A DNA stretch of 64,000 nt from Candidatus Doudnabacteria bacterium (GCA_003151625.1 PLYC01000013.1:93210-157209); one strand, 5' to 3'; shown: positions 30,233-61,961, counted from the stretch's first letter. Numbers and translations are program-made. The notes: generated from the sequence alone by a model not told the origin.

Positions 30233-30327
30233 GGCGTCATCCTGAGGGAGTGCGTCCGACCGAAGGATCTCTGTCAAAAGAAGAGATTCTTCGCCCCTCA
30301 GAGACATTCGGGGTTCAGAATGACGCC
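30233..30327. mobile_element. ~95-bp miniature TIR element, same family as 27697-27790 in opposite orientation
   Basis: ggcgtcatcctgag...ttcagaatgacgcc. Lies immediately upstream of the true prfA start. Confidence 0.55.
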
Positions 30328-30339
30328 AAGGAGATAGTT

Positions 30340-31437
30340 ATGGATTCCACTTTTAAAAAAATAGCAGATGAGTACGAACAGCTAACCGAGCAAATGGCTT
30401 CGGGTAGTTCTTTCGATATGGCTAAATTAGGCAAAAGGCAGGCCGAGCTGGCGCCAATGGTGGGGAAGATCAAAGATTTAGGATTAAAGATTAAAGAACA
30501 AGAAGATAATAAAAAGCTTTTGGAAGACCAAGATTCGGAAATAAAATCGATGGCGCTGGACGAGGGTCGGCGGCTTGAATCTGAAATCTTAAATCTTAAA
30601 TCCTCGATCGAGGATTCCCTGTTGCCCAAGGATAAAAACGACGACAAAAATATAATCGTAGAAATTCGTGCCGGAGCCGGCGGTGACGAAGCCACCCTGT
30701 TTGTGGCGGAGATGTTTAGGGCTTACGGTAAGTTTGCGGAAGAACAGGGTTTTAAACCTCATATTGTTTCTTCTTCCCGTTCGGATGCGGGCGGTTTTAA
30801 AGAAGTAATCTTCGAAATCCACAGCCCCTTGAAGATTCCCATCAAGGGGCACGATGGGAATCTTCAAGGGGCGCCTTATGCTTTGTTTAAATACGAATCC
30901 GGCGTCCACCGCGTACAGCGCGTGCCGGAGACGGAAAAAAGCGGCCGCGTGCATACCTCTACCATAACCGTGGCCGTGTTGCCCATTTTGGAAGAAAAAG
31001 ACTACGCCATTGCGGATAAAGATCTGAACATCGAGGCAACTACATCTTCCGGCCACGGCGGGCAGAGTGTAAATACTACATATAGTGCTATCCGCATAAC
31101 CCATATCCCTACCGGTATAACCGCTCAGTGCCAGGATGAGCGTAGCCAGGCGCAAAACCGGGAGAAGGCCTTGGAAGTTATTCGCGCCCGCGTTGCCCAG
31201 CATTACGAGGAAATAGAAAGCAAAAAAGTGCGCGACCTTACAAAGTCTCAAATAGGAACCGGTGATCGGTCGGAGAAAATCAGAACTTATAATTTTCCCC
31301 AAGATCGTGTTACCGATCACCGTATTAACGAAAATTTTAACCAAATAAATTTGATTATGGAAGGCAAATTTGCCGATATTGTTGAAGCATTACAGAAAGC
31401 GGATTTGGAAGCAAAAAGGGAGGCGTTAAAGAATTGA
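30340..31437 (+). CDS. prfA: peptide chain release factor 1
   Basis: GGQ motif SSGHGGQSVNTT and PET (PxT) tripeptide. AAGGAG 6 nt upstream of ATG 30340. The track ORF begins earlier (30250) inside the miniature element. Confidence 0.9.
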   Translation: MDSTFKKIADEYEQLTEQMASGSSFDMAKLGKRQAELAPMVGKIKDLGLKIKEQEDNKKLLEDQDSEIKSMALDEGRRLESEILNLKSSIEDSLLPKDKNDDKNIIVEIRAGAGGDEATLFVAEMFRAYGKFAEEQGFKPHIVSSSRSDAGGFKEVIFEIHSPLKIPIKGHDGNLQGAPYALFKYESGVHRVQRVPETEKSGRVHTSTITVAVLPILEEKDYAIADKDLNIEATTSSGHGGQSVNTTYSAIRITHIPTGITAQCQDERSQAQNREKALEVIRARVAQHYEEIESKKVRDLTKSQIGTGDRSEKIRTYNFPQDRVTDHRINENFNQINLIMEGKFADIVEALQKADLEAKREALKN

Positions 31438-32023: not shown

Positions 32024-32874
32024 CGATACGACAAGCATTAATTAAATATCACTGTATTGAAATTGAGTTGCTTCTTGCGGATCTCCTTGGTAAATCTAAG
32101 GAGTTTTTGTTTATGAATCCCGGGCACAGCTTATCAGCTGGGCAGCTTATAAGCTTATCAGCTCTTGTTAAACGCAGGGAGAGCGGTGAGCCGATGGCTT
32201 ATATTTTGGGGTATAAGGATTTTTATGGGTTAAAATTTAAAGTTAATCGCAACGTGTTAATCCCCCGCCCGGAGACGGAATGGGTGGTTGAAAGAATTAG
32301 GAATTATGAATTAGAAATTATGAATGGGAAACCATTTCGAGTCCTTGATGTCGGTACCGGAAGCGGGTGCATTGTTATAAGCTTAGCGAAATTGTTGCCA
32401 CCCTCCCCTAACCCCTCCCGTCAAGGGAGGGGAAAACTGCAGTTTTGCGCAAGTGACATGTCATCAGAAGCTTTAAAGATTGCCAAGCAAAATGCCAAAA
32501 AGTATAAAGTAAAAATTAAGTTTATTAAAAGCGACCTTTTAAAAAATATTAAGGGCAATTTTGACGTTATAATCGCAAACTTGCCATATGGATGGCGTGG
32601 GGTCAAAAACAGATTTTCTTCGGTTAAAGATGGATTAAAATTTGAGCCAAAGAAGGCTTTATATACATCGGAACGCGGTTTGCGGGAGATCCGCCGCTTG
32701 CTACAACAAGTCGCTTTGTTAAAAAATAAACCAAAGTTGGTTTATTTGGAATTTGACCCAAGACAAAAACGCGAGCTGGGATCACTAATAAAAAAATCCC
32801 TCCCAGGATCTAAAACAAAGTTTTATAAAGACTACAACGGTTTTTGGCGTTATGCGGAAGTTATTCCGTTATGA
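32020..32874 (+). CDS. prmC: release factor glutamine methyltransferase (HemK/PrmC)
   Basis: VLDVGTGSGCIVISLAK (motif I), IIANLPYGW (NPPY-like, here NLPY). Downstream of prfA. Contains a 12-aa GC-rich palindromic insertion. Confidence 0.8.
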   Translation: MTIRQALIKYHCIEIELLLADLLGKSKEFLFMNPGHSLSAGQLISLSALVKRRESGEPMAYILGYKDFYGLKFKVNRNVLIPRPETEWVVERIRNYELEIMNGKPFRVLDVGTGSGCIVISLAKLLPPSPNPSRQGRGKLQFCASDMSSEALKIAKQNAKKYKVKIKFIKSDLLKNIKGNFDVIIANLPYGWRGVKNRFSSVKDGLKFEPKKALYTSERGLREIRRLLQQVALLKNKPKLVYLEFDPRQKRELGSLIKKSLPGSKTKFYKDYNGFWRYAEVIPL

Positions 32875-33754
32875 TTTTTTGGAATTTTTCCAAAGTTTCC
32901 TGTCCATGCACGCGGACACGAGGGATACGCATTAAATCATCCAGATTTATTAGTTTCCCTTCATGCACAGTTACACCCATTACAAAGCCGGATTTTTTGG
33001 CTTGAGTAATATAAGAGTCGGTATAGTGGCCGTAAGGGTAAATTAAAATATTTGTGGTGGTTCCGAGATTGTTGTAAATGTCGGAAATAGATGCGGACAA
33101 GTTTTGAAAAATGTAGCTAGCTGTAAATTTAGGATTTTGTCCGTCAAAATGATTTTGAGTGTGCGAGACAATTTCATTGCCCTGGCTTTGGGCATTTTTT
33201 ATTTCTTCCCAAGGGGCATAAATATTGGTACCCTGCGAAGTTCCGGGGTTTTGTGTAATTATCCCAAAACTGCCCGTATAATTATATTTTTTTAAAATTG
33301 GCACGGCGTTTATAAACACATCTTCGTATCCGTCGTCAAAAGTAAATAACACCGGTTTTTTTGGCATAACAAATTTTCCCTGGCTGTAAAGATAAATATC
33401 CTCCAGAGTAACGCTGTTATACTTGTTATCGCTTAGCCATTTAACCTCCGCTTCAAAATTGGCGGTCGGCACGGTTAAGTCCTGCCGCACTTTATTGGCT
33501 TTTGTCGGCAAATCTTCAACATGGTGGTACATTAGAATGGGAATGGATAGCGTGCGGCCTTTTACTATGGCGTCATTAGGAACCGGCAGCGGCTCGTAGT
33601 CCTTTGGTGTTACCAATTTCGGGTATGTCTTGCCCCTCGGTTCGATTACAGTCACTTTTGGCATTTGGCGATCGAAATAAAAAAATCCTCCCGCCAATAC
33701 CAGGCAGGCGAGGATTAAAATGGACAATTGGATTGCTTTTTTCTTTAGGTACAT
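32861..33754 (-). CDS. polysaccharide deacetylase (NodB/CE4 domain) with N-terminal TM
   Basis: TFDDGYEDV and ILMYHHV motifs. Confidence 0.75.
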   Translation of the reverse strand: MYLKKKAIQLSILILACLVLAGGFFYFDRQMPKVTVIEPRGKTYPKLVTPKDYEPLPVPNDAIVKGRTLSIPILMYHHVEDLPTKANKVRQDLTVPTANFEAEVKWLSDNKYNSVTLEDIYLYSQGKFVMPKKPVLFTFDDGYEDVFINAVPILKKYNYTGSFGIITQNPGTSQGTNIYAPWEEIKNAQSQGNEIVSHTQNHFDGQNPKFTASYIFQNLSASISDIYNNLGTTTNILIYPYGHYTDSYITQAKKSGFVMGVTVHEGKLINLDDLMRIPRVRVHGQETLEKFQKIITE

Positions 33755-33900
33755 TGTAGTTTAAATTATAACATAAGTATAGCGTGCCCATTTATTGGGC
33801 TGCAGCCCAATAAATGGGCACGCTACAGCAAAGATCGTCCGGGCAATAAGAGAAAACAAAACCCGCCCTGTCATCGACAGGGCGGGTTTTAAAATCGTAA

Positions 33901-44712: not shown

Positions 44713-45474
44713 CTAAGTCAAAATCCTCATGCCGGTTTTGGTAACCGCGACGGTATGTTCAAAGTGGGCGGAAAGGCCGCCGTCTTTGGTGGAAATGGTC
44801 CAGCCGTCGGGTTCAAACACAACAAAGTAGTCAAACTCGCACAGCATTGGTTCAATGGCCAAAACCATGCCTTCGCGCAAAACTTCCCCCGTCCCCTTTT
44901 TTCCGTAATTCGGCACCATAGGGTCTTCGTGGACTTCGTAGCCCACACCGTGGCCGACTAAATCCCGGACCACGGAAAAACCTGCGGATTCAGCGGTTGT
45001 TTGGGCGCAGAAAGCAATATCGCCAATCCTGTTTCCCGATCTAACCTGCGCTATGGCCGCGGATAAAGATTTTTTTGTCGTTTCCAAAAGCCTTTTTGCA
45101 ACGTCGGAAATTTTTCCTACCGGAACCGTAATGGCCGTGTCGGTAAAGAGGCTCTTATATTCCATGCCAATATCCAGGCCAATAATGTCGCCGTCGCGCA
45201 AAATTACGTCGCGCGACGGTATTCCGTGCACAACCACGGAGTTAACCGAAGTGCACAGCCCGGCCGGAAAAGGGTTCTTTTTCGGGCCGTAATTTTTAAA
45301 GCTGGGTTTTCCCCCGACCCGCGTTATTTCCTGTTCGGCAAATTCATTTAATTCCCATGTAGAAATACCCGGCTTAATCAGTTCGGCCGTAGAATGCAAG
45401 ATATTATGAAGAAGACGTCCGCCTTCGCCGATTATGTTTATTTCTTCAGGAGTTTTAATTAGACCCTTTTTCAT
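44713..45474 (-). CDS. map: type I methionine aminopeptidase
   Basis: Metal ligands in GHGVGYEVHE and SAHFEHTV. Confidence 0.95.
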   Translation of the reverse strand: MKKGLIKTPEEINIIGEGGRLLHNILHSTAELIKPGISTWELNEFAEQEITRVGGKPSFKNYGPKKNPFPAGLCTSVNSVVVHGIPSRDVILRDGDIIGLDIGMEYKSLFTDTAITVPVGKISDVAKRLLETTKKSLSAAIAQVRSGNRIGDIAFCAQTTAESAGFSVVRDLVGHGVGYEVHEDPMVPNYGKKGTGEVLREGMVLAIEPMLCEFDYFVVFEPDGWTISTKDGGLSAHFEHTVAVTKTGMRILT

Positions 45475-46084
45475 AATTTTGGAGTTTTAACAGCAATCTT
45501 TTTCTGGCTTGGAAAATTGTGCCCAGCGTGGAAATTTTCACAAACGGATAAAGTTTTTTAAAATAAGCCACAACCTCCGTAATATTTTTTTTGTAGTAAG
45601 AAATCCTGTTTTTTAAAGCTTTATTATTGTCATCGGGCCGCTTGGAAAATTTTCCCTTAAAATAGGTTTTGCGCGCCGTCATGCGCAGTATGGTTTCTTT
45701 AAGCGGGATGGAAAGATAAATAAATAAAACGCTTCCACGTTTTTCCTGCTTCAGCCATTTGGCCACTAATTTGGCTTCACCCAGCATTTTGGGCGTGCCG
45801 TTAAATAAAATTCCTTGGTTTTTGGGCGTGCTATGAATTTTATCGCGCAATAAATTCCTGACTAATTCCGTGGGCGTGAGCCTGCCGCTATCCAAAGTTT
45901 TATCCAGCTGATATTTTTTTCGCAGTTCTTTATTGTGTTCCAAGCCCCGCAGTTCTCGTCCCATATCCAAATCGTAAAGGTCATATTTGCGCGCCAAAAA
46001 TTGGCCGTGGGTGGCTTTGCCAGCCGCCGGATCGCCAAGCAGTATTATGTTTAGGGGATGTTGATTTTTCATCAGTGTTAACAA
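45455..46084 (-). CDS. adenylate kinase-like P-loop nucleotide kinase (paralog)
   Basis: LGDPAAGKAT and LFNGTPK motifs. Confidence 0.55.
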   Translation of the reverse strand: MLTLMKNQHPLNIILLGDPAAGKATHGQFLARKYDLYDLDMGRELRGLEHNKELRKKYQLDKTLDSGRLTPTELVRNLLRDKIHSTPKNQGILFNGTPKMLGEAKLVAKWLKQEKRGSVLFIYLSIPLKETILRMTARKTYFKGKFSKRPDDNNKALKNRISYYKKNITEVVAYFKKLYPFVKISTLGTIFQARKRLLLKLQNYEKGSN

Positions 46085-46121
46085 TGGGCATCATTGTGTA
46101 ACACAATGATGCCCATTGTTG

Positions 46122-46697
46122 TTAACTTAATTTCAAAACTTTATTTATTTCCTTAGTTACTTCCTCTACGCTCGGTGTCCCGTCGATTTCAAAAAAACTG
46201 GATTTTGGTCTTAGAAAATCCAAAACCGGTAAAGTGTCTTCCTCGTACTGTTTTAGCCTAAATTCAATTTTTTCCCTGGTGTCGTCCGCTCTTTTTTCAA
46301 TCTCGGCTCTTTTAAGGAGTCTGGCGATAGATTCCTCCCTGGGTAAATTAACAAACAGAGTGGCAAAATCTTTACGCCCCTGATTTAACAAAAATTTTAT
46401 TAAATGTTCGGCCTGGGCCACGCGGCGGGGAATGCCGTCAAAAATAATCCCTACATTATGGGCGATTTCGCCAAGCCGGTTGTCTACAACTTCGTAAAGC
46501 TGTTCGTCGGTTAACAGGACGCCGGAGTCAATCAAATTTTTAATTTTTTTCCCCAGAGGGCTGTCACTTGACCCGACTTCCCGTAAAATCCCTCCCATTT
46601 CCCAGTAAAAAAAGTTGAGTTTTTTTGCCAGAATTCGTGCCTGCGTGCCTTTGCCAGACCCCTGCGGGCCAATAAAGAAAATGGTATTTAGATTCAT
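46122..46697 (-). CDS. adk: adenylate kinase (short form)
   Basis: FFIGPQGSGKGTQ, IFDGIPR. Confidence 0.9.
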   Translation of the reverse strand: MNLNTIFFIGPQGSGKGTQARILAKKLNFFYWEMGGILREVGSSDSPLGKKIKNLIDSGVLLTDEQLYEVVDNRLGEIAHNVGIIFDGIPRRVAQAEHLIKFLLNQGRKDFATLFVNLPREESIARLLKRAEIEKRADDTREKIEFRLKQYEEDTLPVLDFLRPKSSFFEIDGTPSVEEVTKEINKVLKLS

Positions 46698-46794
46698 TTA
46701 AAATAAATTAAAATATTAAGCTTAGTTTATCAAAATTTGGGATTTAAATCAAGTTGTGTTATAATAAATTAAATTTTTCAGACAGAAACAAAAA

Positions 46795-48501
46795 ATGGAC
46801 CACACCTTATTTTACCAGCTCACGGGCGTGCTTTTAATAGCCGGGCTCATTGCCGTCTTAATTAGCGTCCTTAAGCAGCCCAGCGTGCTGGCGTTTATTT
46901 TAACCGGCATTTTGGTCGGTTATTTTGGGTCTACGCAGCTCCACGCGACTGCGGTTTTTTCGGATTTGGGCGAGATTGGCATTACCCTATTGCTTTTTAT
47001 GGTCGGTTTGGAACTAGATGTGGGCAGGTTAAAAGAGCTTGGAAAGGTAGTGGTTGTTACCGCTATTGGACAAATTTTAGGCAGCAGTATTTTGGGATTT
47101 GTCTTTGCCCGACTGTTTGGTTTTAACTTTCAGGCCTCGGTATTCATTGCCGTGGCTCTGACTTTTACTTCTACCATCATTGCCGTAAAGCTTTTAAGCG
47201 AAAAAGGCCAGCTGCAAAGCCTGCACGGCCGGATTGCCGTGGGTTGCAGCATTGTCCAGGATTTTGCCGCGCTGGTCCTTTTGATGTTTTTGGGCAGCTC
47301 AACCAATTCTTCAATAATCCCCTCTGCTTTGCCCGGTTGGCAGCTGGCGGTGATTACGCTGGTTCGGGCTTTAATTTTGTTTTTGCTGCTGCTTGTTGCC
47401 AGCAAAAAAGTTTTGCCCTGGGTTTTAAAATTTTTGAGCAAAAACGGCGAACTGCTTTTGTCGTTTTCTTTGGCCTGGGCTTTGGGTATGGCGGCTTTTG
47501 CCTCTTTGCCCCTGGTGGGTTTTAATTTTGAAATTGGCGGATTTTTAGCCGGCCTGGCTTTGGCCAATTCCCAGGTGCACTGGGAAATCGCGGCGAAGGT
47601 TAAATCTATCCGCGACTTTTTTATTATTATCTTTTTTATAGTTTTTGGTTCTCAGCTGGCTTTTGGCAACGTTTGGGCGCATTGGCCGCAAGTGGCGGCT
47701 TTTTCCGTTTTTATGCTGGTTGTAAATCCTTTTTTGGTTTTGCTCTTGCTTACGAGGCAGGGCTACAAATCCAAAACGGCTTTTTTGGCCGGCAGCGTGG
47801 TGGTTCCTATGTCGGAGTTTAGTTTTATTTTGGCGGCTTTGGGCAGCCGCAGCGGGCAAATTACCCAGGAGGTCGCCAGCTTAATTACTTTGGTCGGGCT
47901 AATAAGCATTGCCTGTTCTTCTTACATAATTATCCATGCCGAAAGACTGTATGTTTTATGGAAACCGGTTTTAAAATATTTTGAACCAAAAAATGGTCTG
48001 GCCGAAATTGCTTCGGACACGGTTTTAAAAAATCACGTAATTTTGGTGGGCGCCCACCGCTTGGGCAGGCATTTAATAGCCACACTGGAAAAATCCAAAA
48101 AGGCATTGGTAATAGTAGATATTAACCCCGATGTCACGGCCGAGTACGCGGCCACGGGCTTAACCGTGGTCTGTGGGGATATTACTGAAGGTTACATTCA
48201 GGACCAGGTAAATTTGGCCGAAGCCAAAGTGATTATTTCCACTGTTCCGGATTTCCAGGATAATCTTTCTTTGCTGGAAGCTGTAAAAATAAAAACAGCC
48301 AACCGCAGAAGCAAGCCCAAACTTATTTTTGCCGCCCAAACCGAAGCCGAGGCCAAAAAACTCTACGAGCAGGAAATAGATTACGCCCTATCCCCTCACT
48401 TTATTAGCGGCCTGCATCTGGCGAAAATCCTGCGCGGCACGGATAATTTTAAGGAACTGAAAACCCTGCGCGAACAACATTTGAAGGTTATAAGGGCCTA
48501 G
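46795..48501 (+). CDS. CPA2 monovalent cation:proton antiporter with C-terminal RCK/TrkA-N domain
   Basis: ~12 TM. ILVGAHRLGRHL Rossmann segment. Confidence 0.8.
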   Translation: MDHTLFYQLTGVLLIAGLIAVLISVLKQPSVLAFILTGILVGYFGSTQLHATAVFSDLGEIGITLLLFMVGLELDVGRLKELGKVVVVTAIGQILGSSILGFVFARLFGFNFQASVFIAVALTFTSTIIAVKLLSEKGQLQSLHGRIAVGCSIVQDFAALVLLMFLGSSTNSSIIPSALPGWQLAVITLVRALILFLLLLVASKKVLPWVLKFLSKNGELLLSFSLAWALGMAAFASLPLVGFNFEIGGFLAGLALANSQVHWEIAAKVKSIRDFFIIIFFIVFGSQLAFGNVWAHWPQVAAFSVFMLVVNPFLVLLLLTRQGYKSKTAFLAGSVVVPMSEFSFILAALGSRSGQITQEVASLITLVGLISIACSSYIIIHAERLYVLWKPVLKYFEPKNGLAEIASDTVLKNHVILVGAHRLGRHLIATLEKSKKALVIVDINPDVTAEYAATGLTVVCGDITEGYIQDQVNLAEAKVIISTVPDFQDNLSLLEAVKIKTANRRSKPKLIFAAQTEAEAKKLYEQEIDYALSPHFISGLHLAKILRGTDNFKELKTLREQHLKVIRA

Positions 48502-48517
48502 TTACTAAGATTTTTTT

Positions 48518-48553
48518 GTAACCATTTTAACGTGGCCACGCTAAAATGGTTAC
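48518..48553. repeat. 36-bp GGCC-centred palindrome (family member 1)
   Basis: gtaaccattttaacgtggccacgctaaaatggttac. Confidence 0.7.
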
Positions 48554-48562
48554 GCATAGTTT

Positions 48563-49081
48563 ATGCCAAGAAGCATAAAACTTAAAATCACCGAAGCAAT
48601 GCTCAAAGCAGTTTGGGACGCTTTTTCTAATTTTGGTGATCATTCGGAATACATTCAAGATAAATATGATTGTTCAAGCCAGTACTATCGCAATTCTCTT
48701 TCCCGATTAAAGAAGCGAGGGCTAATTAAAGTTGTCTCCAAACAAGGAAAAAAATTTATTGAATTGACCAAAAATGGCGAGCTAAAAGTTTTGTTAAGTA
48801 TGGCTGAACTTGAAAAAACCGACGCTTGGGATGGCAAGTGGAGGCTAATAATTTTTGATATTCCTGAAGACGCAGATATTCAAAGAGACAAGTTAAGAAA
48901 ACTTTTAAAACAGCACCAGTTTTTTAAATTGCAAGCGAGCGTTTACATTAATCCTTATCCTTTGAATCGTCAGGCTCTTGATTACTTGAGACAAAGTGGC
49001 TTAATTGATTATATACGGATTTTGCGTGTCGACGACATAGATTTTGACTTGGATTTAAAAAGAAAATTTAAACTAAAATAA
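48563..49081 (+). CDS. PaaX-like regulator C-terminal domain protein
   Basis: WDGKWRLIIFDIPEDADIQRDKLRKLLKQHQFFKLQASVY. Confidence 0.55.
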   Translation: MPRSIKLKITEAMLKAVWDAFSNFGDHSEYIQDKYDCSSQYYRNSLSRLKKRGLIKVVSKQGKKFIELTKNGELKVLLSMAELEKTDAWDGKWRLIIFDIPEDADIQRDKLRKLLKQHQFFKLQASVYINPYPLNRQALDYLRQSGLIDYIRILRVDDIDFDLDLKRKFKLK

Positions 49082-49082
49082 T

Positions 49083-49118
49083 GTAACCACTTTGACGTGG
49101 CCACGTCAAAGTGGTTAC
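49083..49118. repeat. 36-bp perfect palindrome (family member 2)
   Basis: gtaaccactttgacgtggccacgtcaaagtggttac. Confidence 0.7.
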
Positions 49119-49161
49119 AGATAAAATTGACCTTACCATTAATTTTCTTTAAACTAACCCT

Positions 49162-50577
49162 ATGCTTAAGCTTTATAATACTCTATCAAGAAAAATCGAA
49201 GAGGTTCCGCAAAAGGACCATATTAACCTCTATACCTGCGGGCCGACGGTTTATAATTACGCGCATATTGGGAATTTGCGGAGTTATATAATGGCGGATT
49301 TGCTTTATCGTACTTTAAAATACGATGGTTATAAGCCAAAGTGGGTAATGAATATTACGGATATAGACGATAAAACCATTAAGGGGGCAATCACAAAGTT
49401 TGGTAATAAGGCGACCGTGGAAAACCTGCGCGAGTTTACCCAATTTTATTTGGATGAATTTTTAAAGGATTTGAGCGAGGTGAATGTGGTCTCATCGGAA
49501 GATTATCAGATATATCAGCCGGGGCAAGCATTGGATTTTTCAAAGAAACTGATTTTTATTCGCGTAACCGATGTCATAAAAGAAACCCAGGATTTTATCG
49601 TGGAGTTAATAAATAAAGGCTACGCCTACAAAGCCGACGATGGCAGCACTTATTTTAGCATTGAAAAATACCAAAAAGGTTTTGATGATTACGGCGCATT
49701 AGTTGGTGAGAAGTTTATAGAAGGGAAAAAAGTCGGTGCGCGCGTGGCCGTGGATGAGTATGAAAAAGATAACTTGAGCGATTTTGCACTGTGGAAGGCG
49801 TGGGATGAGGCATCGGATGCCCAAATTTTTTGGGATCATTCGACTTTAGGCAAAGGCCGCCCGGGTTGGCACATTGAATGTTCCGTAATAAATAAAATCG
49901 GATTTAACGGCGAACCCACGGACATCCATACTGGCGGTGTTGATTTAATATTCCCCCACCACACCAACGAAATTGCCCAATCACAGGCGTTATTTGGCAA
50001 AGGCAATTTTGTGCACCATTGGTTCCATTCCGAGCACTTGCTTGTTGACGGCAAAAAAATGTCTAAGAGTGCTGGGAATTTTTACGTTTTGAAAGATTTA
50101 AAACCCATAAATAGTTATCATTTGGATAAATATCAGCCCTACGCTTTACGATATTTATTTTTACAAGCGCACTATAGGGTTCAACAGAATTTTACTCAGA
50201 AATCATTAGATGCTTCACACAATGGTTTGCTAGGGTTAATAGTTTCAGCTCATAAGGATGGAGTTATTTCCGATTTAAGATTAGTCGGGCTTGATAATGA
50301 TTTAAACTCGCCTTTAGCTATCTCCGAAAATAAACCCTCGGAGATTTTAGAAGCCTTGATTGGAATTTCTGTTAAATCTATGATTGACCCTAACAGATTA
50401 GTATCAGATGATGAGTTGTCAGCTGACATCAAGAGTTTAAAAAAAGAACGAGAAACAGCTAAAAATCAAAAAGACTTCAAAAAATCTGACGAATTGCGAA
50501 AGCAAATAGAAGATTTGGGGTACGAGGTTATGGACACTCCGGAAGGGCAGAAAGTTAAGAAAAAGCTGCAAATTTAG
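49162..50577 (+). CDS. cysS: cysteine--tRNA ligase
   Basis: HIGN and KMSKS motifs. Zn ligands. Confidence 0.95.
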   Translation: MLKLYNTLSRKIEEVPQKDHINLYTCGPTVYNYAHIGNLRSYIMADLLYRTLKYDGYKPKWVMNITDIDDKTIKGAITKFGNKATVENLREFTQFYLDEFLKDLSEVNVVSSEDYQIYQPGQALDFSKKLIFIRVTDVIKETQDFIVELINKGYAYKADDGSTYFSIEKYQKGFDDYGALVGEKFIEGKKVGARVAVDEYEKDNLSDFALWKAWDEASDAQIFWDHSTLGKGRPGWHIECSVINKIGFNGEPTDIHTGGVDLIFPHHTNEIAQSQALFGKGNFVHHWFHSEHLLVDGKKMSKSAGNFYVLKDLKPINSYHLDKYQPYALRYLFLQAHYRVQQNFTQKSLDASHNGLLGLIVSAHKDGVISDLRLVGLDNDLNSPLAISENKPSEILEALIGISVKSMIDPNRLVSDDELSADIKSLKKERETAKNQKDFKKSDELRKQIEDLGYEVMDTPEGQKVKKKLQI

Positions 50578-50729
50578 GTATACACCTGTATTCCCCACCA
50601 TACCCACAAATAGGCCAAAATAGGCCTATTTTTGGTCTTTCCAGGAGGCTTGAAAGTGAGTATAATAAATAATAGAAGTCATCAAATAACGATTGGCCTT
50701 TGAGGCCGATAAATCGGCACACTACACTT

Positions 50730-52121
50730 ATGTCAGACAACTCATCTATCCAACGAATCCCGCCCCAAAACCTGGACGCAGAAATGTCGGTTTTGGGATG
50801 TTTAATGCTGGACAAAGACGCGATTATAAAGATTGGCGATATTGTTAGCGCAGACCATTTTTACGACGAAAAAAATAAAATAATTTTTGAGGCGGTTTTG
50901 GCTTTGTACGCCACCAATACATCCGTGGATATTTTAACAGTTACCAACTGGCTGGAAGAAAAAAAACTTCTTGAAAAAGTCGGCGGCAGTTCCTATTTAA
51001 CCCAGCTGGTTAACGCGGTGCCCAGCGCCGCGCACGTTACCCACTACGCCTACATTGTCCGAAAAAAGGGCACGCTTCGTAAATTAATTACGGCTGCCGG
51101 AGAAATCAGCAATATCGCTTTTAAGGAAGAAGGCGAAATGGAAGATATTTTGGACGTGGCCGAGCAAAAACTTTTTAATATTTCCCAAAAACATTTAAAA
51201 CAGAATTTTGTTTCTATTGGGAACATTCTACACGCCACCTTTGAAAGAATAGATGAACTGCATCGGGAGAAAGGAAAGTTAAGGGGCCTGCCAACAGGTT
51301 ATGTGGATTTGGATAATTTGCTCGGCGGACTGCAGAAATCGGATTTGGTGGTTTTGGCCGCACGTCCCTCCATGGGCAAAACTTCCCTGGCTTTAGACAT
51401 AATGAGGAATGTTGCCGTAAACGCCAAAGTACCGGTCGGAATTTTTTCCCTGGAAATGAGCAAGGATCAGTTGGTGGACCGTTTGCTTTCCAGCCAGAGC
51501 GATGTTAACTTGTGGAAAATCCGCACCGGACATTTGAACGAGGACGACTTTGACCAAATTGGCAAAGCTATGGGCGAACTTTCCGAGTCCCCTATTTTTA
51601 TAGACGACGCGGCCGGCAGCAACATTATGGAAATTCGTACCAAAGCCCGTCGGCTGCAGTCCGAGCATGGTGTGGGGTTAATTGTGGTAGACTATTTGCA
51701 ATTAATGGAAGGCCGCAACCAGGAAAATCGCGTACAGGAAGTTTCCGAAATTTCCCGCGCTTTAAAATTGTTGGCTCGCGAGCTGAACGTGCCGGTGCTG
51801 GCTTTGTCCCAGCTGTCCCGCGGCGTGGAAAGCCGGCCGGATAAAATCCCCCAGCTAGCCGATTTAAGAGAATCGGGATCTATTGAACAGGATGCGGACG
51901 TGGTTATGTTCATTTACCGTGAGGAAATGTATAAAGGTAAAGATAGCAAGCGCCCTCACATTGCGGAAATCCACATTAAAAAGCACCGTAACGGCCCGAC
52001 CGGACAGGTGGATTTGTATTTTGACCAGGAAAAAACTTCCTTTAAGAATTTGGACCGTAGTTTTGACGTTTCACCGCAGACGGTAATGGACAGTATGGTT
52101 CCGGCGGAAGAACCGGTGTAG
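50730..52121 (+). CDS. dnaB: replicative DNA helicase DnaB
   Basis: Walker A ARPSMGKTS. Walker B/RecA-fold motifs. Confidence 0.9.
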   Translation: MSDNSSIQRIPPQNLDAEMSVLGCLMLDKDAIIKIGDIVSADHFYDEKNKIIFEAVLALYATNTSVDILTVTNWLEEKKLLEKVGGSSYLTQLVNAVPSAAHVTHYAYIVRKKGTLRKLITAAGEISNIAFKEEGEMEDILDVAEQKLFNISQKHLKQNFVSIGNILHATFERIDELHREKGKLRGLPTGYVDLDNLLGGLQKSDLVVLAARPSMGKTSLALDIMRNVAVNAKVPVGIFSLEMSKDQLVDRLLSSQSDVNLWKIRTGHLNEDDFDQIGKAMGELSESPIFIDDAAGSNIMEIRTKARRLQSEHGVGLIVVDYLQLMEGRNQENRVQEVSEISRALKLLARELNVPVLALSQLSRGVESRPDKIPQLADLRESGSIEQDADVVMFIYREEMYKGKDSKRPHIAEIHIKKHRNGPTGQVDLYFDQEKTSFKNLDRSFDVSPQTVMDSMVPAEEPV

Positions 52122-52242
52122 TCAGGTTTTAAGTTATTAGTTATGGAAGCCGGTGTGGTAGTAAGTGGTTGGTTGTAAGTAATCTAAAACTTTTTACTTA
52201 TAACCAAACTGGCTTCTATAACTTATAACCAATTACTATTTC

Positions 52243-52854
52243 ATGACAAAATTACCTACCAGCCTGCAAAAACTAATAAACGAGCTCGGAAGCTTGCCTG
52301 GCATTGGGCCAAAGACAGCGCAGCGGTTGGCTTTTTATCTGCTTAAGGAAGACAATATAGATTTAAACAATTTGTCCGATTCAATTTCCAGAGTTAAGGA
52401 AGGGATTGTTTTTTGTTCCACTTGCCATAATATGGGCGAAAGCGACCCTTGCCACACCTGTACCGACTCTAAGCGCGACAAAAGCCTTATATGCGTGGTG
52501 GAAGAGCCGCTAGACGCGCAAGCTATTGATAAGAGCGGACAGTTTAATGGAGTCTTTCACGTTTTGGGCGGCGTGCTTAACCCTTTGGAAGGAATTGGGC
52601 CGGAGAATTTGGAAGTTGAATCGTTGATCGAAAGAACCAAGAATCAAGATCCAAGAATCAAAGAAATTATAATCGCGACAAACCCATCGCTTGAAGGTGA
52701 GACAACCGCGATGCATTTGTCAAAAGTTATAAAACAATCAAACACCAAAATAAAAATTACCCGCATTGCTCGCGGCCTGCCCATGGGCGGAGACTTGGAG
52801 TACGCGGATGATATTACGCTGATGAGGGCGATGGAAGGGCGGAGGGAATATTAA
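52243..52854 (+). CDS. recR: recombination protein RecR
   Basis: HhH LPGIGPKTAQR, C4 zinc finger, Toprim. Confidence 0.9.
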   Translation: MTKLPTSLQKLINELGSLPGIGPKTAQRLAFYLLKEDNIDLNNLSDSISRVKEGIVFCSTCHNMGESDPCHTCTDSKRDKSLICVVEEPLDAQAIDKSGQFNGVFHVLGGVLNPLEGIGPENLEVESLIERTKNQDPRIKEIIIATNPSLEGETTAMHLSKVIKQSNTKIKITRIARGLPMGGDLEYADDITLMRAMEGRREY

Positions 52855-52855
52855 T

Positions 52856-53488
52856 ATGCAACCAGAAAATTTTTTGGAAAAAGAAAGGCAAGAAGTAAAT
52901 TTTCGTCATCCCGAAACGGTTGTGGAGATTGGAGCTACTGATAATATATTAGATGCCTACTATCTCAGGAATTGGTCAGACTTTGACAAAAATAAGGACG
53001 TTTACGTGGCATTAAATATTATAAATCATCAGGGTTCGTTAAATGGGATTAACTATCAGCTTTCTGATAAAAATATAAAAGGGGCTGCTATACAAGCTGA
53101 TGCTGCGAATATGCCTTTTGGAGATAAAAGTGTTGATAAGTTAGTATTAAATGACGTGCTAAATTCATTCAGATTGCCAAATGCTGACCCAGACATAGAA
53201 AAGCTATTTGTAAATGACGGTATCCATCCTACTTTTGCCGATTCTGATGAGATGTTGGCGGCTATGCGACAAATTTTTAATGATTGCAAAAGGATTGTGA
53301 AAGAAAATGGCGAAATTCTCATAGTTATGGACTTGCCGGATGCCAGTGACGGGATGGTCGATTATTTTATCGAAGGTTTAAAAACCTCGGAATCATATGA
53401 AATTATAAAACAACCAAAATTGAATATTGAACCAGACGGAAAACAAACTAACTCCGAAGTTATCACTATAAAATTTAAACTGCCCTAA
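52856..53488 (+). CDS. hypothetical protein (degenerate SAM-MTase-like)
   Basis: ADAANMPFGDKSVDKLVLNDVL resembles the MTase post-I motif, but no glycine-rich motif I. Confidence 0.35.
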   Translation: MQPENFLEKERQEVNFRHPETVVEIGATDNILDAYYLRNWSDFDKNKDVYVALNIINHQGSLNGINYQLSDKNIKGAAIQADAANMPFGDKSVDKLVLNDVLNSFRLPNADPDIEKLFVNDGIHPTFADSDEMLAAMRQIFNDCKRIVKENGEILIVMDLPDASDGMVDYFIEGLKTSESYEIIKQPKLNIEPDGKQTNSEVITIKFKLP

Positions 53489-53530
53489 GCCTAAGAGCGG
53501 GGTTTTTTTTATCAGCGTTAATTCAATATT

Positions 53531-53574
53531 TTAAATGGCACGATTTTAACGGCCGTTAAAATCGTGCCATTTAA
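53531..53574. repeat. 44-bp perfect palindrome with ttttaacgGCCgttaaaa core
   Basis: ttaaatggcacgattttaacggccgttaaaatcgtgccatttaa. Confidence 0.65.
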
Positions 53575-53607
53575 AATGAATCAATCATAGCAAATTAAAT
53601 TAAAAAG

Positions 53608-53649
53608 TGTGTAACCACTTTGGCGTGGCCACGCCAAAGTGGTTACACA
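53608..53649. repeat. 42-bp perfect palindrome (family member 3)
   Basis: tgtgtaaccactttggcgtggccacgccaaagtggttacaca. Confidence 0.7.
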
Positions 53650-53673
53650 GTAAAATAGTTCCAAACATCAAAA

Positions 53674-53703
53674 AGACTGCAGGTTAGGGCAGTCTTTTTT
53701 TAG
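53674..53703. terminator. bidirectional intrinsic terminator between convergent genes
   Basis: aaaa-agactgc-aggttagg-gcagtct-ttttttt. Confidence 0.6.
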
Positions 53704-53742
53704 CGATATATCAGCGTATTAATCAGCAATTTATCAGCGGTT

Positions 53743-53826
53743 CTATGCTTTTGTAATTTCTACTTCGATGTAAAATTGCCTTGCGCCGATTTTTCTTCCG
53801 CCTTCGCTAAAGCTTCGGCGGATTTT
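53743..53826 (-). pseudogene. start-less duplicated fragment of the rplU 3' end
   Basis: ...GGRKIGARQFYIEVEITKA* vs L21 C-terminus RRKIGARQAYTEIEIVKA*. Confidence 0.4.
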
Positions 53827-53845
53827 ATCGGTTTCTGATTATTTT

Positions 53846-54139
53846 CTAAGCCTTGACGATTTCGATTTCGGTATAGGCTTGCCGGGCTCCTATCTTACGG
53901 CGGTATTTGCTTTTGGCTTTATATTTTAGAACGTGGACTTTGGCTCCCCTGCCCTGCTTTATAACTTTGGCGGTCACTGCCGCGCCGGGGACATACGGCT
54001 TACCGACTTTGCCGTCCGCGTATAAAACTTTATCAAAAGTTAATGTGGCTCCGGCTTCGCCTTCGAGTTTTTCTACCTGGACTTTGTCGCCGGAAGAAAC
54101 CAAATATTGTTTTCCGCCTGATTCGAAAATTGATAGCAT
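53846..54139 (-). CDS. rplU: 50S ribosomal protein L21
   Basis: MLSIFESGGKQYLVSSGDKV. 97 aa. Confidence 0.9.
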   Translation of the reverse strand: MLSIFESGGKQYLVSSGDKVQVEKLEGEAGATLTFDKVLYADGKVGKPYVPGAAVTAKVIKQGRGAKVHVLKYKAKSKYRRKIGARQAYTEIEIVKA

Positions 54140-54169
54140 TAGATTAAAGATTTAGGATTAAAGATTTAG

Positions 54170-55297
54170 TTACTTGGATATTTTACCAGCTTTTTCGTTA
54201 TCCGTCAACTCCGCGTAATCAAACAAATCCGGGATGTGGGGATGTTTCCGCTTGTAGAGAATAACCACCATAATGGCCATAATCAGCATTACAAACACCA
54301 AAACTACCAGCGCTATCAATTTGCCCATACTTTGCAAAGATACCGCTACAGCGCCAAAAATCGCGGAAATTGCGTACAGCGCCAAGACAGCCTGGCGCTG
54401 GCTTAATCCAACATCCAAAAGCCTAAAGTGCAAATGTTGGCGGTCTCCGGCAAAAGGGCTTCGGTGGTAGAAAATTCTTCTGGCAATTGCCCAGGCAACG
54501 TCGAGAATTGGGATGCCCATAACCAACAACGCCGTGGCAATTTTGGCGCCTAAAATTATTGCCAGTACGCCGAGTATAAAGCCGATTAACGTGCTGCCCG
54601 ATTCGCCCAAAAAAATTGAAGCCGGATTAAAATTATAAAATAAAAATCCTAAAAGGCAGCCGGCAAAAATTATCGCGATGCTGGCTGTAATCGGCTGGTT
54701 AACTTTGGAGGTTAAGGATAGGGCGAACATTGTCAGCGAACCAATAAGGCCAATCCCCCCGCATAATCCGTCCAATCCGTCCAAAAGTTTGGTGGTAAAA
54801 ATCATTCCCATCATCCAGAGCCAGACCAAAATTACAGGTAATTGAAAATTGAAAATTGAAAATTGAAAATTGTGATTTATGTTAATTGGGGAGCCAAAAG
54901 GATTACTAATTTGGGTAATGCCAACGCCAATCCCCGACCAAACTATAATTAAAGACGCAATAGCCGGGAATAGCCACAGGATTTTTGGCGGCAGATTAAG
55001 TTTGTCGTCCAAAATTCCTCCGATAATTAAAGTTAACCCGCCAAAAATAATTCCCACAAAAAATTTGACCGGCACGATGCTATAATCCGGATTTCCAAAT
55101 TGCAGGTAAGCAGTAAGTGCGATTAAAAAACTTAAATAAACCGCCAAACCACCGAGCAGAGGCGTTGGTTTGGGATGATTTTTTCTAGGTTGGCTCGGCA
55201 AATCCAAAACACGCCAGCGCCTGGCAAAAATAATAATGGCCGGAGTGATTGCCGCAGAAAGGGCGGCGGATACCAAAAAGAAAATTAGATATGTCAT
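54170..55297 (-). CDS. polyprenyl-phosphate sugar-1-phosphate transferase (MraY/WecA, GT4 family)
   Basis: Polytopic. Contains a 7-bp tandem repeat. 4-nt overlap with the next gene. Confidence 0.7.
   Translation of the reverse strand: MTYLIFFLVSAALSAAITPAIIIFARRWRVLDLPSQPRKNHPKPTPLLGGLAVYLSFLIALTAYLQFGNPDYSIVPVKFFVGIIFGGLTLIIGGILDDKLNLPPKILWLFPAIASLIIVWSGIGVGITQISNPFGSPININHNFQFSIFNFQLPVILVWLWMMGMIFTTKLLDGLDGLCGGIGLIGSLTMFALSLTSKVNQPITASIAIIFAGCLLGFLFYNFNPASIFLGESGSTLIGFILGVLAIILGAKIATALLVMGIPILDVAWAIARRIFYHRSPFAGDRQHLHFRLLDVGLSQRQAVLALYAISAIFGAVAVSLQSMGKLIALVVLVFVMLIMAIMVVILYKRKHPHIPDLFDYAELTDNEKAGKISK
54840..54872. repeat. 7-bp tandem repeat (aattgaa) x4.7 inside the coding sequence
   Basis: aattgaaaattgaaaattgaaaattgaaaattg encodes NFQFSIFNFQL on the minus strand. 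Confidence 0.8.
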
Positions 55298-57576
55298 TGT
55301 TTTAATTTACGTCCGATTTTAAATTGCCAATAAAATAATATCAGCCACGCTAACAGCGCAAAAAAAGACAGTTTCCAGCCTAAACCGTATGCGTAATTCT
55401 TGGGATGATAAGCAATTGTGGAGGAATCTTGTCCGGCTAAAATTGGCAGAGCCCGCAGTCCCATTACATTTGAAACCGGAATTAGCTGGTTGCCAATCTC
55501 TTCAAACCAGCCTGGGTAAAAGTTGTCGGTGGTTATCAAATAGCCTTGCGTCCCGTTATTATAGCCAATTTTTTCTGTACCGTCTTCCAAAACGGAAAAA
55601 GAAGCGACCGGAGAAACCAAATCCAAATTTTTGCCTGTTTGCAAATCGGCAAGCTTATTCGCTAAATCATTAAGATTCGAAGCATTTATGGTGAATGCCC
55701 TAGGCAAAGGGTTGCTTAATTTTAATACGGTATAATTATTATCATTAAAGGCCACGCTGGTATCGCCGGGATGGGATTGCAGAAAGTCCAACCCCTTTTG
55801 ATTTGGAAATAACAAATACCCAACGCTTAAAAAACGCAACGCATTTAAATTGGGGTCGCTAAAAGTATATTCGGGGGAATAGTTGTAATTACCCACGGCT
55901 GCTTTGAGTTGTTTATTGCTGGTTAAATAAATTGTGTCATGGTCGTTGAGTTCGTTAATGTGGTACCAGGTGCCGATGTTAGGGAGCAATACATCGCCAA
56001 AAGTAAAGACACGGTAAAAATTTTGGGTATACTGTGTTTGCAAATAATTCAAAGCAGGCTCGTTTGGGTAAAAGTCCGTTGGCCTGGAAGTTTTCATAAA
56101 AATCATCCCGTGGAAAGCCGTCTCAAACGAAACTAAAATAAACAAAAACGCCAAAGCACTTTTTTTTGGCAAATACTTAAAAATAAAATAGGCAATAAGT
56201 AAATTTACAAAAAATACCGTAATCAATACGTCTTGCCATAGGCTAACCGTGTGCCAGTCTAAATTATGGGCGAACTGCCATCCGTGCGTGATCAACCGAT
56301 TTGCAATAATCAGAACAATCGAAAAAATCGTAAATCCCGCAAACGTCCGGTTTAGAAGCTTACGGCTGATTTTGCCATTAATTAAATTATCCAAACCAAA
56401 GGCCGCGAGCACAGAGCCGCAAAATGCCCATATGTATAAAAGTCGATTGTTATAATTTAGGTTAAAGCCCGGAAGTTTATTTATCAGAAAATAAATAAAC
56501 GGCGCGTGATAAACCAAAGCGAGGCAAAATAGTGTCGCAACTGCGAAAAACCATACGTGTTTTTTTACCTGTCTTTTAAAGGACATCAAGGATAAAATGA
56601 GCCCGCTGATGCCAATGTAGCCAAGCGCCAGTTCACCATAATTTGGCACGAGCAAATAACTGAAGTTTTTGACGCCGGTGTTGCCGTAAAAATCCGGAAT
56701 AATATTCGCCAAAAAAAGTAGTGGTTGTAAATAAAAGGGATTTTCGGTAAAGCCCGAGCGGTAATTTAAGTTGGCGCTTAATTTTAAATATTCCAAAAAT
56801 GGTAATACGGCCATTGCGGAGATAATCAGTCCGAGAAAAAATATGCAGGTAATTAACACAAGGCTAGAGACCCCCTTTTTAAAACTCAAACCGGAAAAAA
56901 ATGATTTAAAAATCGCGTAACCGTAAATTACAAAAAAGATGTAAAAAAAAGTCTGCGGATGTCCGGCTAACAGGCCTAAAGCCGTAACCGGAGCCAGCCA
57001 AAGGACGGTTTTGGCATTATTAGCATTAAAATGCCTTTCAATAATAAAAAGAGATAATGGCAAAATTAAAATAACCGACGTAAGCGGCCATAAAAACCAT
57101 ATTACATTGGCGTTGCAAAATGCAAATAAGATTGCCCCGAGCAAACAGGAATAAATATTTAGCTTCAGCTCTCGCAAGTAAAAATACGTAAACAAACCCA
57201 TTAAAAACAATTTTAAAAAAGCGTAGGCGGCTAATGCTGCCCGAATGTTTAAAAAATAAAAAAGCCAAGTTAGCGGAAAAAATATTGCCGACTGCATATT
57301 CGCTAAAAGCGGCAAGCCGTTTCCGGAAAAAACATTCCAAAATGGAATATGGCCGGTTCGGATAATTTCCCCGGATAATTTCCACCACGGCAGCATTTGG
57401 GTAGTAATGTCTAAATAAGGGGCAACATAGTGGGTTGTATCTACAGGCGCCAATAATCGTCCCTGAAAAAATGACGGGGAAATAAAAAGGAGAACCAAAA
57501 AGCCCAGCACCATCATGGCTGCCAAGTTTGGCCGTGAATTAATAAGTTTTTTAGTCTTAAAAAAAATTTTATTCAT
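55294..57576 (-). CDS. large polytopic membrane protein (YfhO-like)
   Basis: ~14 TM + large extracytoplasmic C-terminal domain. 760 aa. Confidence 0.45.
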   Translation of the reverse strand: MNKIFFKTKKLINSRPNLAAMMVLGFLVLLFISPSFFQGRLLAPVDTTHYVAPYLDITTQMLPWWKLSGEIIRTGHIPFWNVFSGNGLPLLANMQSAIFFPLTWLFYFLNIRAALAAYAFLKLFLMGLFTYFYLRELKLNIYSCLLGAILFAFCNANVIWFLWPLTSVILILPLSLFIIERHFNANNAKTVLWLAPVTALGLLAGHPQTFFYIFFVIYGYAIFKSFFSGLSFKKGVSSLVLITCIFFLGLIISAMAVLPFLEYLKLSANLNYRSGFTENPFYLQPLLFLANIIPDFYGNTGVKNFSYLLVPNYGELALGYIGISGLILSLMSFKRQVKKHVWFFAVATLFCLALVYHAPFIYFLINKLPGFNLNYNNRLLYIWAFCGSVLAAFGLDNLINGKISRKLLNRTFAGFTIFSIVLIIANRLITHGWQFAHNLDWHTVSLWQDVLITVFFVNLLIAYFIFKYLPKKSALAFLFILVSFETAFHGMIFMKTSRPTDFYPNEPALNYLQTQYTQNFYRVFTFGDVLLPNIGTWYHINELNDHDTIYLTSNKQLKAAVGNYNYSPEYTFSDPNLNALRFLSVGYLLFPNQKGLDFLQSHPGDTSVAFNDNNYTVLKLSNPLPRAFTINASNLNDLANKLADLQTGKNLDLVSPVASFSVLEDGTEKIGYNNGTQGYLITTDNFYPGWFEEIGNQLIPVSNVMGLRALPILAGQDSSTIAYHPKNYAYGLGWKLSFFALLAWLILFYWQFKIGRKLKQ

Positions 57577-57694
57577 GTAAACTTATTAGCGACGTAGAGC
57601 GAGTGAAAGTTATCCGCCTGAGGCGGATAACTTTCCGAGCCCAAGGAGTCTTAATACAGGTTCAATACCTCGGAGTTCTACGAAGAGCGAACCT

Positions 57695-61877: not shown

Positions 61878-61961
61878 TTTTTTGTTTCAAGTTTAGTGTA
61901 ATAAAGCTTATGGCCATATATTCTATTACACTAAATAAAATCGGGATTTTCTTTTAAAGTT

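Follow-up and report, generated by a model that had tools for sequence, protein, structure and literature searches.

Palindromes bracketing the genes of a PaaX- and Cas2-like protein family in Candidatus Doudnabacteria and related Patescibacteria

Escherichia coli PaaX, whose operator is the 39-bp dyad TGATTC-N27-GAATCA, represses its own promoter by steric hindrance (PMC9493321). This repressor of the phenylacetate catabolon, known from E. coli and Pseudomonas, and its operator constitute the closest functional system to the one described here, found in a 64-kb stretch of DNA (hereafter the window) from a Candidatus Doudnabacteria bacterium (GCA_003151625.1, PLYC01000013.1:93210-157209). There, the gene for a small protein is bracketed by two long palindromes, and a third copy lies further downstream. 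The protein is termed mini-PaaX, for its winged helix fused to a Cas2-like domain. The palindrome-bracketed layout recurs across a large, apparently undescribed protein family of the ultra-small bacteria of the Candidate Phyla Radiation (CPR)/Patescibacteria: no earlier account of it turned up in literature searches of partial coverage, on PaaX with Cas2 and on palindromes in Patescibacteria or CPR. Genomes in this lineage are tiny, and to our knowledge almost none of their regulators has been characterised.

In both mini-PaaX and PaaX, a winged helix precedes a Cas2-like dimerisation domain; PaaX is also the best full-length structural match to mini-PaaX. The DNA sites also are alike, both having outer boxes set on a long dyad (GTAACCA-N22-TGGTTAC, 36 bp, in the window). 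However, mini-PaaX lacks the phenylacetyl-CoA effector domain, falls short of the PaaX equivalog score, and is not linked to paa genes, its neighbours being adk, a Na+/H+ exchanger gene, cysS, dnaB, recR, and rplU. It also keeps a Cas2-type aspartate, and in Patescibacteria has expanded into several orthogonal paralogues per genome. Its sites, unlike the PaaX operator, are perfect over their full length, contain a conserved GC-rich centre, and bracket the protein's own open reading frame (ORF).

With Cas2, mini-PaaX shares the ferredoxin-like fold; the motif h-h-h-FDIP-D/E ... R..LR..L ... Q.SVY; a score above the cas2 cutoff; and an association with palindromic repeats of about 30-50 bp. Unlike Cas2, it is fused to a winged helix. 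Moreover, no tandem array resembling CRISPR (short palindromic repeats, clustered and regularly interspaced) is present in the 64-kb window; there is no cas gene among the ten annotated genes at 45455-57576; and CRISPR/cas linkage is absent from the top neighbour families of related loci. The mini-PaaX "repeats" bracket their own gene rather than spacers, and no role in adaptation is implied. By domain content, mini-PaaX stands between PaaX and Cas2, and fails the defining features of each.

Paired dyads a few hundred base pairs apart, served by one homo-oligomeric repressor, are known from LacI (O1/O2) and GalR (OE/OI). Here too, two cognate dyads surround a transcription unit, but they lie around the coding sequence of the regulator itself, 0-35 nt away from its start and stop codons, and are much longer and perfectly symmetric. 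Repetitive extragenic palindromic (REP) elements, bacterial interspersed mosaic elements (BIME), and intrinsic terminators likewise are extragenic, GC-containing palindromes near gene ends; the mini-PaaX sites differ in being gene-specific and in having zero loop, a conserved dyad centre, and no U-tract. As for insertion sequences and miniature inverted-repeat transposable elements, the mini-PaaX paralogues are about 50% diverged and have unrelated arms, one of them is syntenic in at least ten species, and Pfam identifies no transposase domain in the protein. The unusual features are a cognate pair that brackets the regulator's own ORF, perfect palindromes of 30-58 bp with a conserved centre, the Cas2-type motif, and orthogonal paralogues.

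The window palindromes (Table 1) share the scaffold GTAACCAyTTTrrCGTGGCCACGyyAAArTGGTTAC. In this degenerate form the scaffold has exactly three matches in 64 kb, all inside 5.1 kb, and none in 100 dinucleotide-preserving shuffles. Direct reading and this count bear out the original prediction, made on this sequence, of three 36-42-bp palindromes built on one scaffold and differing at paired positions on both arms: the three copy pairings display 2, 2, and 1 mirrored changes, and 1, 1, and 0 one-sided changes. Copy 1 contains a single internal A.C mismatch (TTTTAACG / CGCTAAAA). It begins 16 nt past the exchanger stop codon and finishes 9 nt ahead of the mini-PaaX ATG, with no Shine-Dalgarno sequence in between. 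Copy 2, separated from copy 1 by 565 bp, abuts the mini-PaaX stop codon; the shared scaffold occupies its residues 49083-49118, and the cysS ATG follows 42 nt further on. Copy 3 lies 4.5 kb downstream of the mini-PaaX gene, in the convergent spacer between a methyltransferase-like ORF (plus strand) and rplU (minus strand). The statement that all copies lie just after stop codons is only partly apt: copy 2 directly follows one, copy 1 ends shortly before a start codon, and copy 3 is 119 nt past the nearest stop.

AlphaFold2 models mini-PaaX (mean predicted local distance difference test score, pLDDT, 81) as a winged helix (H-H-H-beta-beta, residues 5-68 approximately) and a linker helix, followed by a beta-alpha-beta-beta-alpha-beta domain. 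Pfam PF20803 (PaaX_M) matches residues 87-159 with 72.6 bits against a cutoff of 24. Among solved structures, Foldseek ranks E. coli PaaX first (8a39, 169 aligned columns), followed by the PaaX-like regulators 3kfw and 3l09 and then by Cas2 proteins; MarR-type and other winged-helix regulators also are matched. The protein passes the NCBIfam cas2 model (TIGR01573; 30.1 bits, cutoff 24.5) and falls far below the PaaX equivalog (TIGR02277; 45 bits, cutoff 264.55). Pfam finds no match to the PaaX C-terminal effector domain, and the protein ends at residue 172, right after the Cas2-like domain. This carboxyl-terminal domain aligns at the residue level with type II-A Cas2, including the beta1 motif R-l-i-FDIP-D/E and the "Q.SVY" strand. 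The Cas2-type aspartate, D99, is invariant in the mini-PaaX family and absent at the aligned position of the PaaX-like protein Rv0674.

Clustering at 50% identity (E<=1e-10) gives 3312 representatives for the family; of the best 150 listed, nearly all are 165-200 residues long. Only one mini-PaaX ORF was detected in the window, and a search of 2.9 million viral contigs found no relatives. PADLOC reported only Cas2-type matches to the carboxyl-terminal domain, and no defence-system context. In annotation pipelines, mini-PaaX and its homologues (P0004, P0007, P0058, and others) go under the names "CRISPR-associated endonuclease Cas2" or "PaaX", although no CRISPR/cas1 or paa genes lie close to them.

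How general is the bracketing? The sample consists of the window and 82 related loci (672 kb in all); 80 of these, beyond the loci termed L001 and L002, were obtained by a protein-profile scan of GTDB species genomes. The 80 loci come from metagenome-assembled genomes labelled Doudnabacteria, Saccharibacteria, Moraniibacteriota, or simply Patescibacteria, often with several per genome (at least six in AMAZON01). Long palindromes were defined by zero loop, arms of at least 13 bp, and at most one mismatch, and were counted as near a mini-PaaX gene if the centre fell within 120 nt of its start or stop. This zone is 6% of the sequence, and contains 84 of the 110 long palindromes and 74 of the 85 that are GGCC-centred. 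Among the 110 centres are 80 CGGCCG, 5 TGGCCA (the window type), and 5 CGATCG. A centre-anchored scan is less biased, in that it applies a loose pairing threshold only: GGCC or GATC sites with 14 of 14 flanking Watson-Crick pairs numbered 67 near gene ends, as against 5 of 3017 in the background. Under a looser definition, an upstream site accompanies 57 of 85 genes, a downstream site 66 of 85, and both sites 46, where gene starts in the related loci were assigned heuristically and the palindrome thresholds favour near-perfect elements.

These palindromes have a median length of 38 bp (range 28-58 bp) and a common half-site anatomy: an ACGG core at the dyad; a 5-bp spacer of A/T only; and a variable outer box of 8-10 bp. 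The outer boxes are common to the upstream and downstream copies of one gene (35 pairs). By comparison, paralogues in one genome have unrelated boxes (mean distance 0.67, versus 0.70 for random pairs). Remote cognate sites, 0.5-4.5 kb from the gene, are present at three other loci (L010, L025, and L034) as well as in the window (copy 3); the spacers that contain them are variously convergent, divergent, or co-directional. The genes next to mini-PaaX mostly run in its direction, with spacers of about 95 nt; the spacer to a co-directional upstream gene is about 99 nt. No common pathway emerged among the downstream neighbours beyond the cysS-linked orthologous group (10 of 65), and the neighbours across the family are assorted housekeeping genes. 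Distances measured by hand between upstream and downstream centres (557-657 bp apart) display no obvious helical phasing. The palindrome centre, which reads TTGACG in a subset, was considered as a -35 element; this is not general, as position 5 from the dyad is G in 29% of sites.

The mini-PaaX proteins of the orthologous loci L001 and L002 have 81% and 61% amino acid identity, respectively, to that of the window, and both loci keep the gene order adk-adk-exchanger-miniPaaX-cysS. Palindromes occur at the same two positions, with the symmetric change of GTGGCCAC to GCGGCCGC. The downstream copy in L002 is half-decayed, which means that sites can erode or be lost. The motif GTAACNNNTTTNNCGNGGCCNCGNNAAA has no match in 185,579 GTDB species-representative genomes, and two JGI metagenome contigs that match it are GC-rich, non-palindromic, and without a mini-PaaX gene, and so were set aside as chance; the source genome and its close relatives are therefore absent from the scanned collections.

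One more member of the family lies close to copy 3. The original prediction listed a related 44-bp palindrome at 53531-53574; the element is really 50 bp long and perfect, with the centre ACGGCCGT. Its core, TTTTAACGGCCGTTAAAA, is of the general family type, so that it belongs to the wider family, but its arms exclude it as a copy of the three-copy motif. Those arms fit no mini-PaaX gene in the window, and the element is probably an orphan or trans site for a paralogous mini-PaaX encoded outside the window.

Which protein reads these sites? Palindrome and centre types follow protein clades, and partial Mantel tests separate the contributions of the two protein domains. The outer box correlates with the amino-terminal domain when the carboxyl-terminal domain is controlled for (r=0.10, p=0.002), and not with the carboxyl-terminal domain (p=0.49). 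Conversely, the central five positions correlate with the carboxyl-terminal domain when the amino-terminal domain is controlled for (r=0.36, p=0.001), and not with the amino-terminal domain (p=0.30). Such opposite partial correlations of two parts of the DNA are not easily produced by shared ancestry, and this supports the adjacent protein as the reader. On this comparative evidence, the palindromes are likely to be sites of the adjacent mini-PaaX protein. The suggestion of binding sites for a dimeric protein, the flanked PaaX-like regulator being the candidate, gains strong comparative support: homologues are bracketed by their own palindromes; DNA and protein domains covary; and the geometry is near that of the PaaX operator.

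With moderate confidence, we further propose that the palindromes act as duplex DNA, serving as cognate operator or roadblock sites for a mini-PaaX homodimer. We infer binding, its stoichiometry, the dimer geometry, and the regulatory outcome as follows. The Cas2-like domains would dimerise over the GC-rich dyad (CGTGGCCACG in the window, ACGGCCGT in most relatives), the A/T-rich 5-bp spacers on either side would be unconstrained or bent, and each outer box (GTAACCA...TGGTTAC, with about 29 bp from centre to centre) would be recognised by one of the two winged helices. At the upstream site, a bound dimer could occlude the promoter or block read-through from the exchanger gene, resulting in autorepression. 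The downstream site might be a roadblock or insulator between the mini-PaaX stop codon and the cysS promoter, and may modulate cysS; alternatively, it could form a loop with the upstream site. The protein would also target copy 3.

Several points weigh against this proposal. The Mantel significance values are inflated by shared ancestry and the outer-box effect is small, so these statistics are indicative. A regulator with its main sites around its own ORF and few other targets is functionally odd, and no promoter is expected at the location of copy 3. The interval from the upstream gene to the mini-PaaX ATG yielded no convincing sigma-70 promoter; mini-PaaX may thus share a transcript with its neighbour, and the palindrome would then also form an RNA hairpin, at 9 nt from the start codon. 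The symmetry is perfect over 36-58 bp, well beyond ordinary operators, and extends to spacer positions at which one gene's two sites differ. Mirrored differences outnumber one-sided differences in the 35 cognate pairs (98 versus 15), a count biased by the filter of at most one mismatch. Finally, the invariant D99 and many polar residues in the carboxyl-terminal domain hint at more than a dimerisation scaffold.

A first alternative is an element acting in RNA. Conceivably, the palindromes of the exchanger/mini-PaaX/cysS operon fold into hairpins on either side of the mini-PaaX ORF that control its translation, mRNA stability, or processing, with the Cas2-like domain perhaps binding or cutting them; RNase activity has been reported for some Cas2 proteins, and the Cas2 motif is kept here together with the aspartate at the catalytic position. 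The predicted hairpins are very stable (-19.8, -26.5, and -33.8 kcal/mol; z-scores -4 to -8.4), the neighbours are mostly co-directional across a spacer of about 95 nt, the upstream palindromes end 6-20 nt before the ATG without a Shine-Dalgarno sequence, and the copies differ in mirrored fashion on both arms. However, the central four nucleotides are always self-complementary (GGCC, GATC, TATA, or CATG) and change symmetrically between clades, neither of which is needed by a hairpin loop; indeed, 120 of 132 elements have zero loop. Sense-strand G.U pairs (1.1-1.8%) are as rare as A.C pairs (1.6-2.1%), both about 1-2% in a centre-anchored tally. (This tally replaced one allowing three mismatches, in which the AT-rich outer ends contributed mostly spurious A.A and T.T pairs.) Moreover, remote copies stand either in divergent spacers or in convergent ones that have terminator-like hairpins on their flanks; winged helix and homology to PaaX both point to duplex DNA; and Rfam, at gathering thresholds, has no match in the whole window. 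An explanation at the RNA level is accordingly unlikely. From the sequences, a DNA dyad is favoured over an RNA hairpin by the always-symmetric centres, the lack of G.U excess, and the rarity of T-rich tails (at least six T in the next 10 nt), found in 13 of 78 family palindromes.

The hairpin at 46080-46120, between the two adk genes, provides a contrast. This perfect element of 41 nt has a counterpart in L001 (647-687), where the outer stem AACAATGGGCATC is kept and the inner stem differs by compensating changes, around a 5-nt loop that is not palindromic. The element resembles an intercistronic hairpin of RNA type and is separate from the GGCC family.

What, then, of the mirrored changes? 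The original prediction took the preserved symmetry to imply selection on a hairpin or on a dimer-binding structure. The symmetry is indeed kept, but the step to hairpin selection is insecure, given that the centres are always self-complementary, that G.U pairs are not in excess, and that template-switching offers an alternative. During quasi-palindrome template-switching, an established mutational process that needs no selection, the polymerase moves to the nascent strand and the repeat becomes "perfect or more perfect" (PMC7202029). DNA-protein crosslinks are reported to stimulate replication template-switching (PMC6357072). A change in one arm could in this manner be erased or copied to the other arm, possibly with stimulation by the bound protein, and copying would generate mirrored differences without hairpin selection. 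The mirrored changes may come from such correction rather than from selection on a hairpin, and we infer the same process as a plausible cause of the over-perfect symmetry.

A second alternative sees the palindromes as nuclease or recombination substrates, or the locus as a relic selfish cassette. The winged helices would place an active Cas2-type nuclease dimer on the dyad, to nick or cut at ACGG/CCGT; the whole unit of palindrome, gene, and palindrome, about 640 bp long, would be a module that is, or once was, mobile or addictive; and the perfect palindromes would result from repeated cleavage and repair, or from cruciform processing. The unit is indeed compact and self-contained, with sites on both flanks of most members, and it is multi-copy within genomes, as the AMAZON01 loci exemplify. 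The palindromes are the size of CRISPR repeats (28-58 bp) and perfectly symmetric right through the centre. Invariant positions of the Cas2-like domain include FDIP/D99 and many polar residues, whereas Rv0674 is without the aspartate. Nevertheless this explanation is unlikely. One paralogue remains fixed between the exchanger gene and cysS in at least ten species; the protein divergence of about 50% and the unrelated arms of paralogues in a genome give no sign of recent transposition; and the viral contigs yielded no relatives. Target-site duplications are not apparent by eye in the flanks of two loci, those of the window and L001. Cutting its own chromosome on both sides of an essential-gene neighbourhood also would be costly to the cell. 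More speculative still is an autonomous "Cas2 plus repeat" system, in which a winged-helix-guided, catalytically competent Cas2-type nuclease dimer recognises the bracketing palindromes and nicks, cuts, or resolves them. Improbable as this appears, it would constitute an unrecognised selfish or genome-structuring element of CPR bacteria, and might be related by evolution to the association of Cas2 with palindromic repeats.

Generic REP/BIME-like elements, or protein-independent bidirectional terminators adjoining the gene by chance, would also be extragenic, palindromic, and GC-centred, and copies 2 and 3 are terminator-like on the minus strand in a consensus scan; both options, raised in the original prediction, are nonetheless very improbable, because the window has only three copies, clustered as described, each gene has its own arm sequence, the motif is missing from the species-representative genomes (with chance matches alone in metagenomes), no T-tract follows copies 1-3 on the plus strand, and T-rich tails are as rare in the family as noted above. 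The window's ordinary terminators differ, being composed of a loop and a T-run (50608-50631 and 53670-53700 are examples); copy 3 and the 50-bp palindrome sit among terminator-like hairpins. The sequence aaaataggcctatttt after cysS, cited as a related GGCC-centred element at 50615-50630, is at 50617-50632 and proves to be part of the first of these ordinary stem-loops, which is followed by TTTTTGG; it is terminator-like and outside the family.

Returning to the proposed operator or roadblock role, the reading has several consequences. Since the sites bracket their own gene, the DNA target of each family member could be read from the genome. The family would provide ready-made orthogonal pairs of protein and 36-58-bp site, and, as divergence of the outer boxes follows that of the winged helix and divergence of the centre that of the Cas2-like domain, a natural system for studying a recognition code. 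More generally, mirrored changes in long palindromes need not imply selection on an RNA or DNA hairpin. "Cas2" labels on these genes can inflate CRISPR-Cas calls in CPR genomes. Should the conserved Cas2-type active site be functional, the family would represent a new kind of site-specific DNA-acting element.

Table 1. Palindromes and genes of the mini-PaaX locus, with palindromes of two related loci (a slash in a sequence marks the dyad)
Feature	Position	Strand	Sequence	Description
Palindrome copy 1	48518-48553		GTAACCATTTTAACGTGG/CCACGCTAAAATGGTTAC	36 bp, near-perfect; upstream site
Palindrome copy 2	49082-49119		TGTAACCACTTTGACGTGG/CCACGTCAAAGTGGTTACA	38 bp, perfect; downstream site
Palindrome copy 3	53608-53649		TGTGTAACCACTTTGGCGTGG/CCACGCCAAAGTGGTTACACA	42 bp, perfect; remote site
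50-bp palindrome	53528-53577		core TTTTAACGG/CCGTTAAAA; outer arms AAATGGCACGA	Perfect; outer arms unrelated to copies 1-3
L001 upstream palindrome			TGTAACACATTTAGCGCGGCCGCGCTAAATGTGTTACA
L001 downstream palindrome			TGTAACCACTTTAGCGCGGCCGCGCTAAAGTGGCTACA
L002 upstream palindrome			ATACTCACTTTATCGCGGCCGCGATAAAGTGAGTAT
L002 downstream palindrome	10519-10560 (L002)		right arm CGCGATAAAGTGA	Half-decayed; right arm intact, left arm degenerate
adk, adk	45455-46697	-		Tandem, 209 and 191 aa; order kept in L001 and L002; Pfam
Na+/H+ exchanger gene	46795-48501	+		With TrkA_N domain; Pfam
mini-PaaX	48563-49081	+		172 aa, PaaX_M/Cas2-like; Pfam
cysS promoter-like element	49127-49164	+	TTGACC-N17-TAAACT-N6-ATG	Predicted by consensus scan; start codon included
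cysS	49162-50577	Co-directional with exchanger and mini-PaaX genes		Pfam
dnaB, recR	After cysS			Pfam
Methyltransferase-like ORF	After cysS; ends 53488	+		Pfam
rplU	After cysS	Opposite		Pfam

The cysS promoter-like element has a -35-like hexamer 7 nt past the end of copy 2. The orthologous locus L001 (3737-3774) has the same architecture, and both genomes fit TTGACC-N17-TAAAYT-N6-ATG. The position of this element directly before the ATG in both genomes suggests that the cysS mRNA is leaderless, or nearly so, in this lineage. The centre of the downstream palindrome is about 61.5 bp from the cysS ATG in the window, and about 83.5 bp in L001.

Other symmetric elements of the window stand apart from this locus. 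A perfect palindrome of 46-50 bp, centred on CTGCAG, occupies 33778-33827, at a distance of 23 nt upstream from the minus-strand gene of a polysaccharide deacetylase (32861-33754). It adjoins a bidirectional terminator-like hairpin (33858-33890) that follows the L25 gene, and has no adjacent gene for a DNA-binding protein. The intergenic spacer between a YfhO-like gene and a GT2 gene contains a 31-nt perfect palindrome with a 1-nt centre (57605-57635). An imperfect 44-nt palindrome centred on ATGGCCAT (61892-61935) separates an unannotated ORF of 596 residues from a PsbP-like gene. Finally, a perfect hairpin with 20-bp arms and a 9-nt loop (30824-30872) resides within the coding sequence of a peptide-chain release factor (30250-31437; PCRF and RF-1 domains), an unusual location for such a structure.

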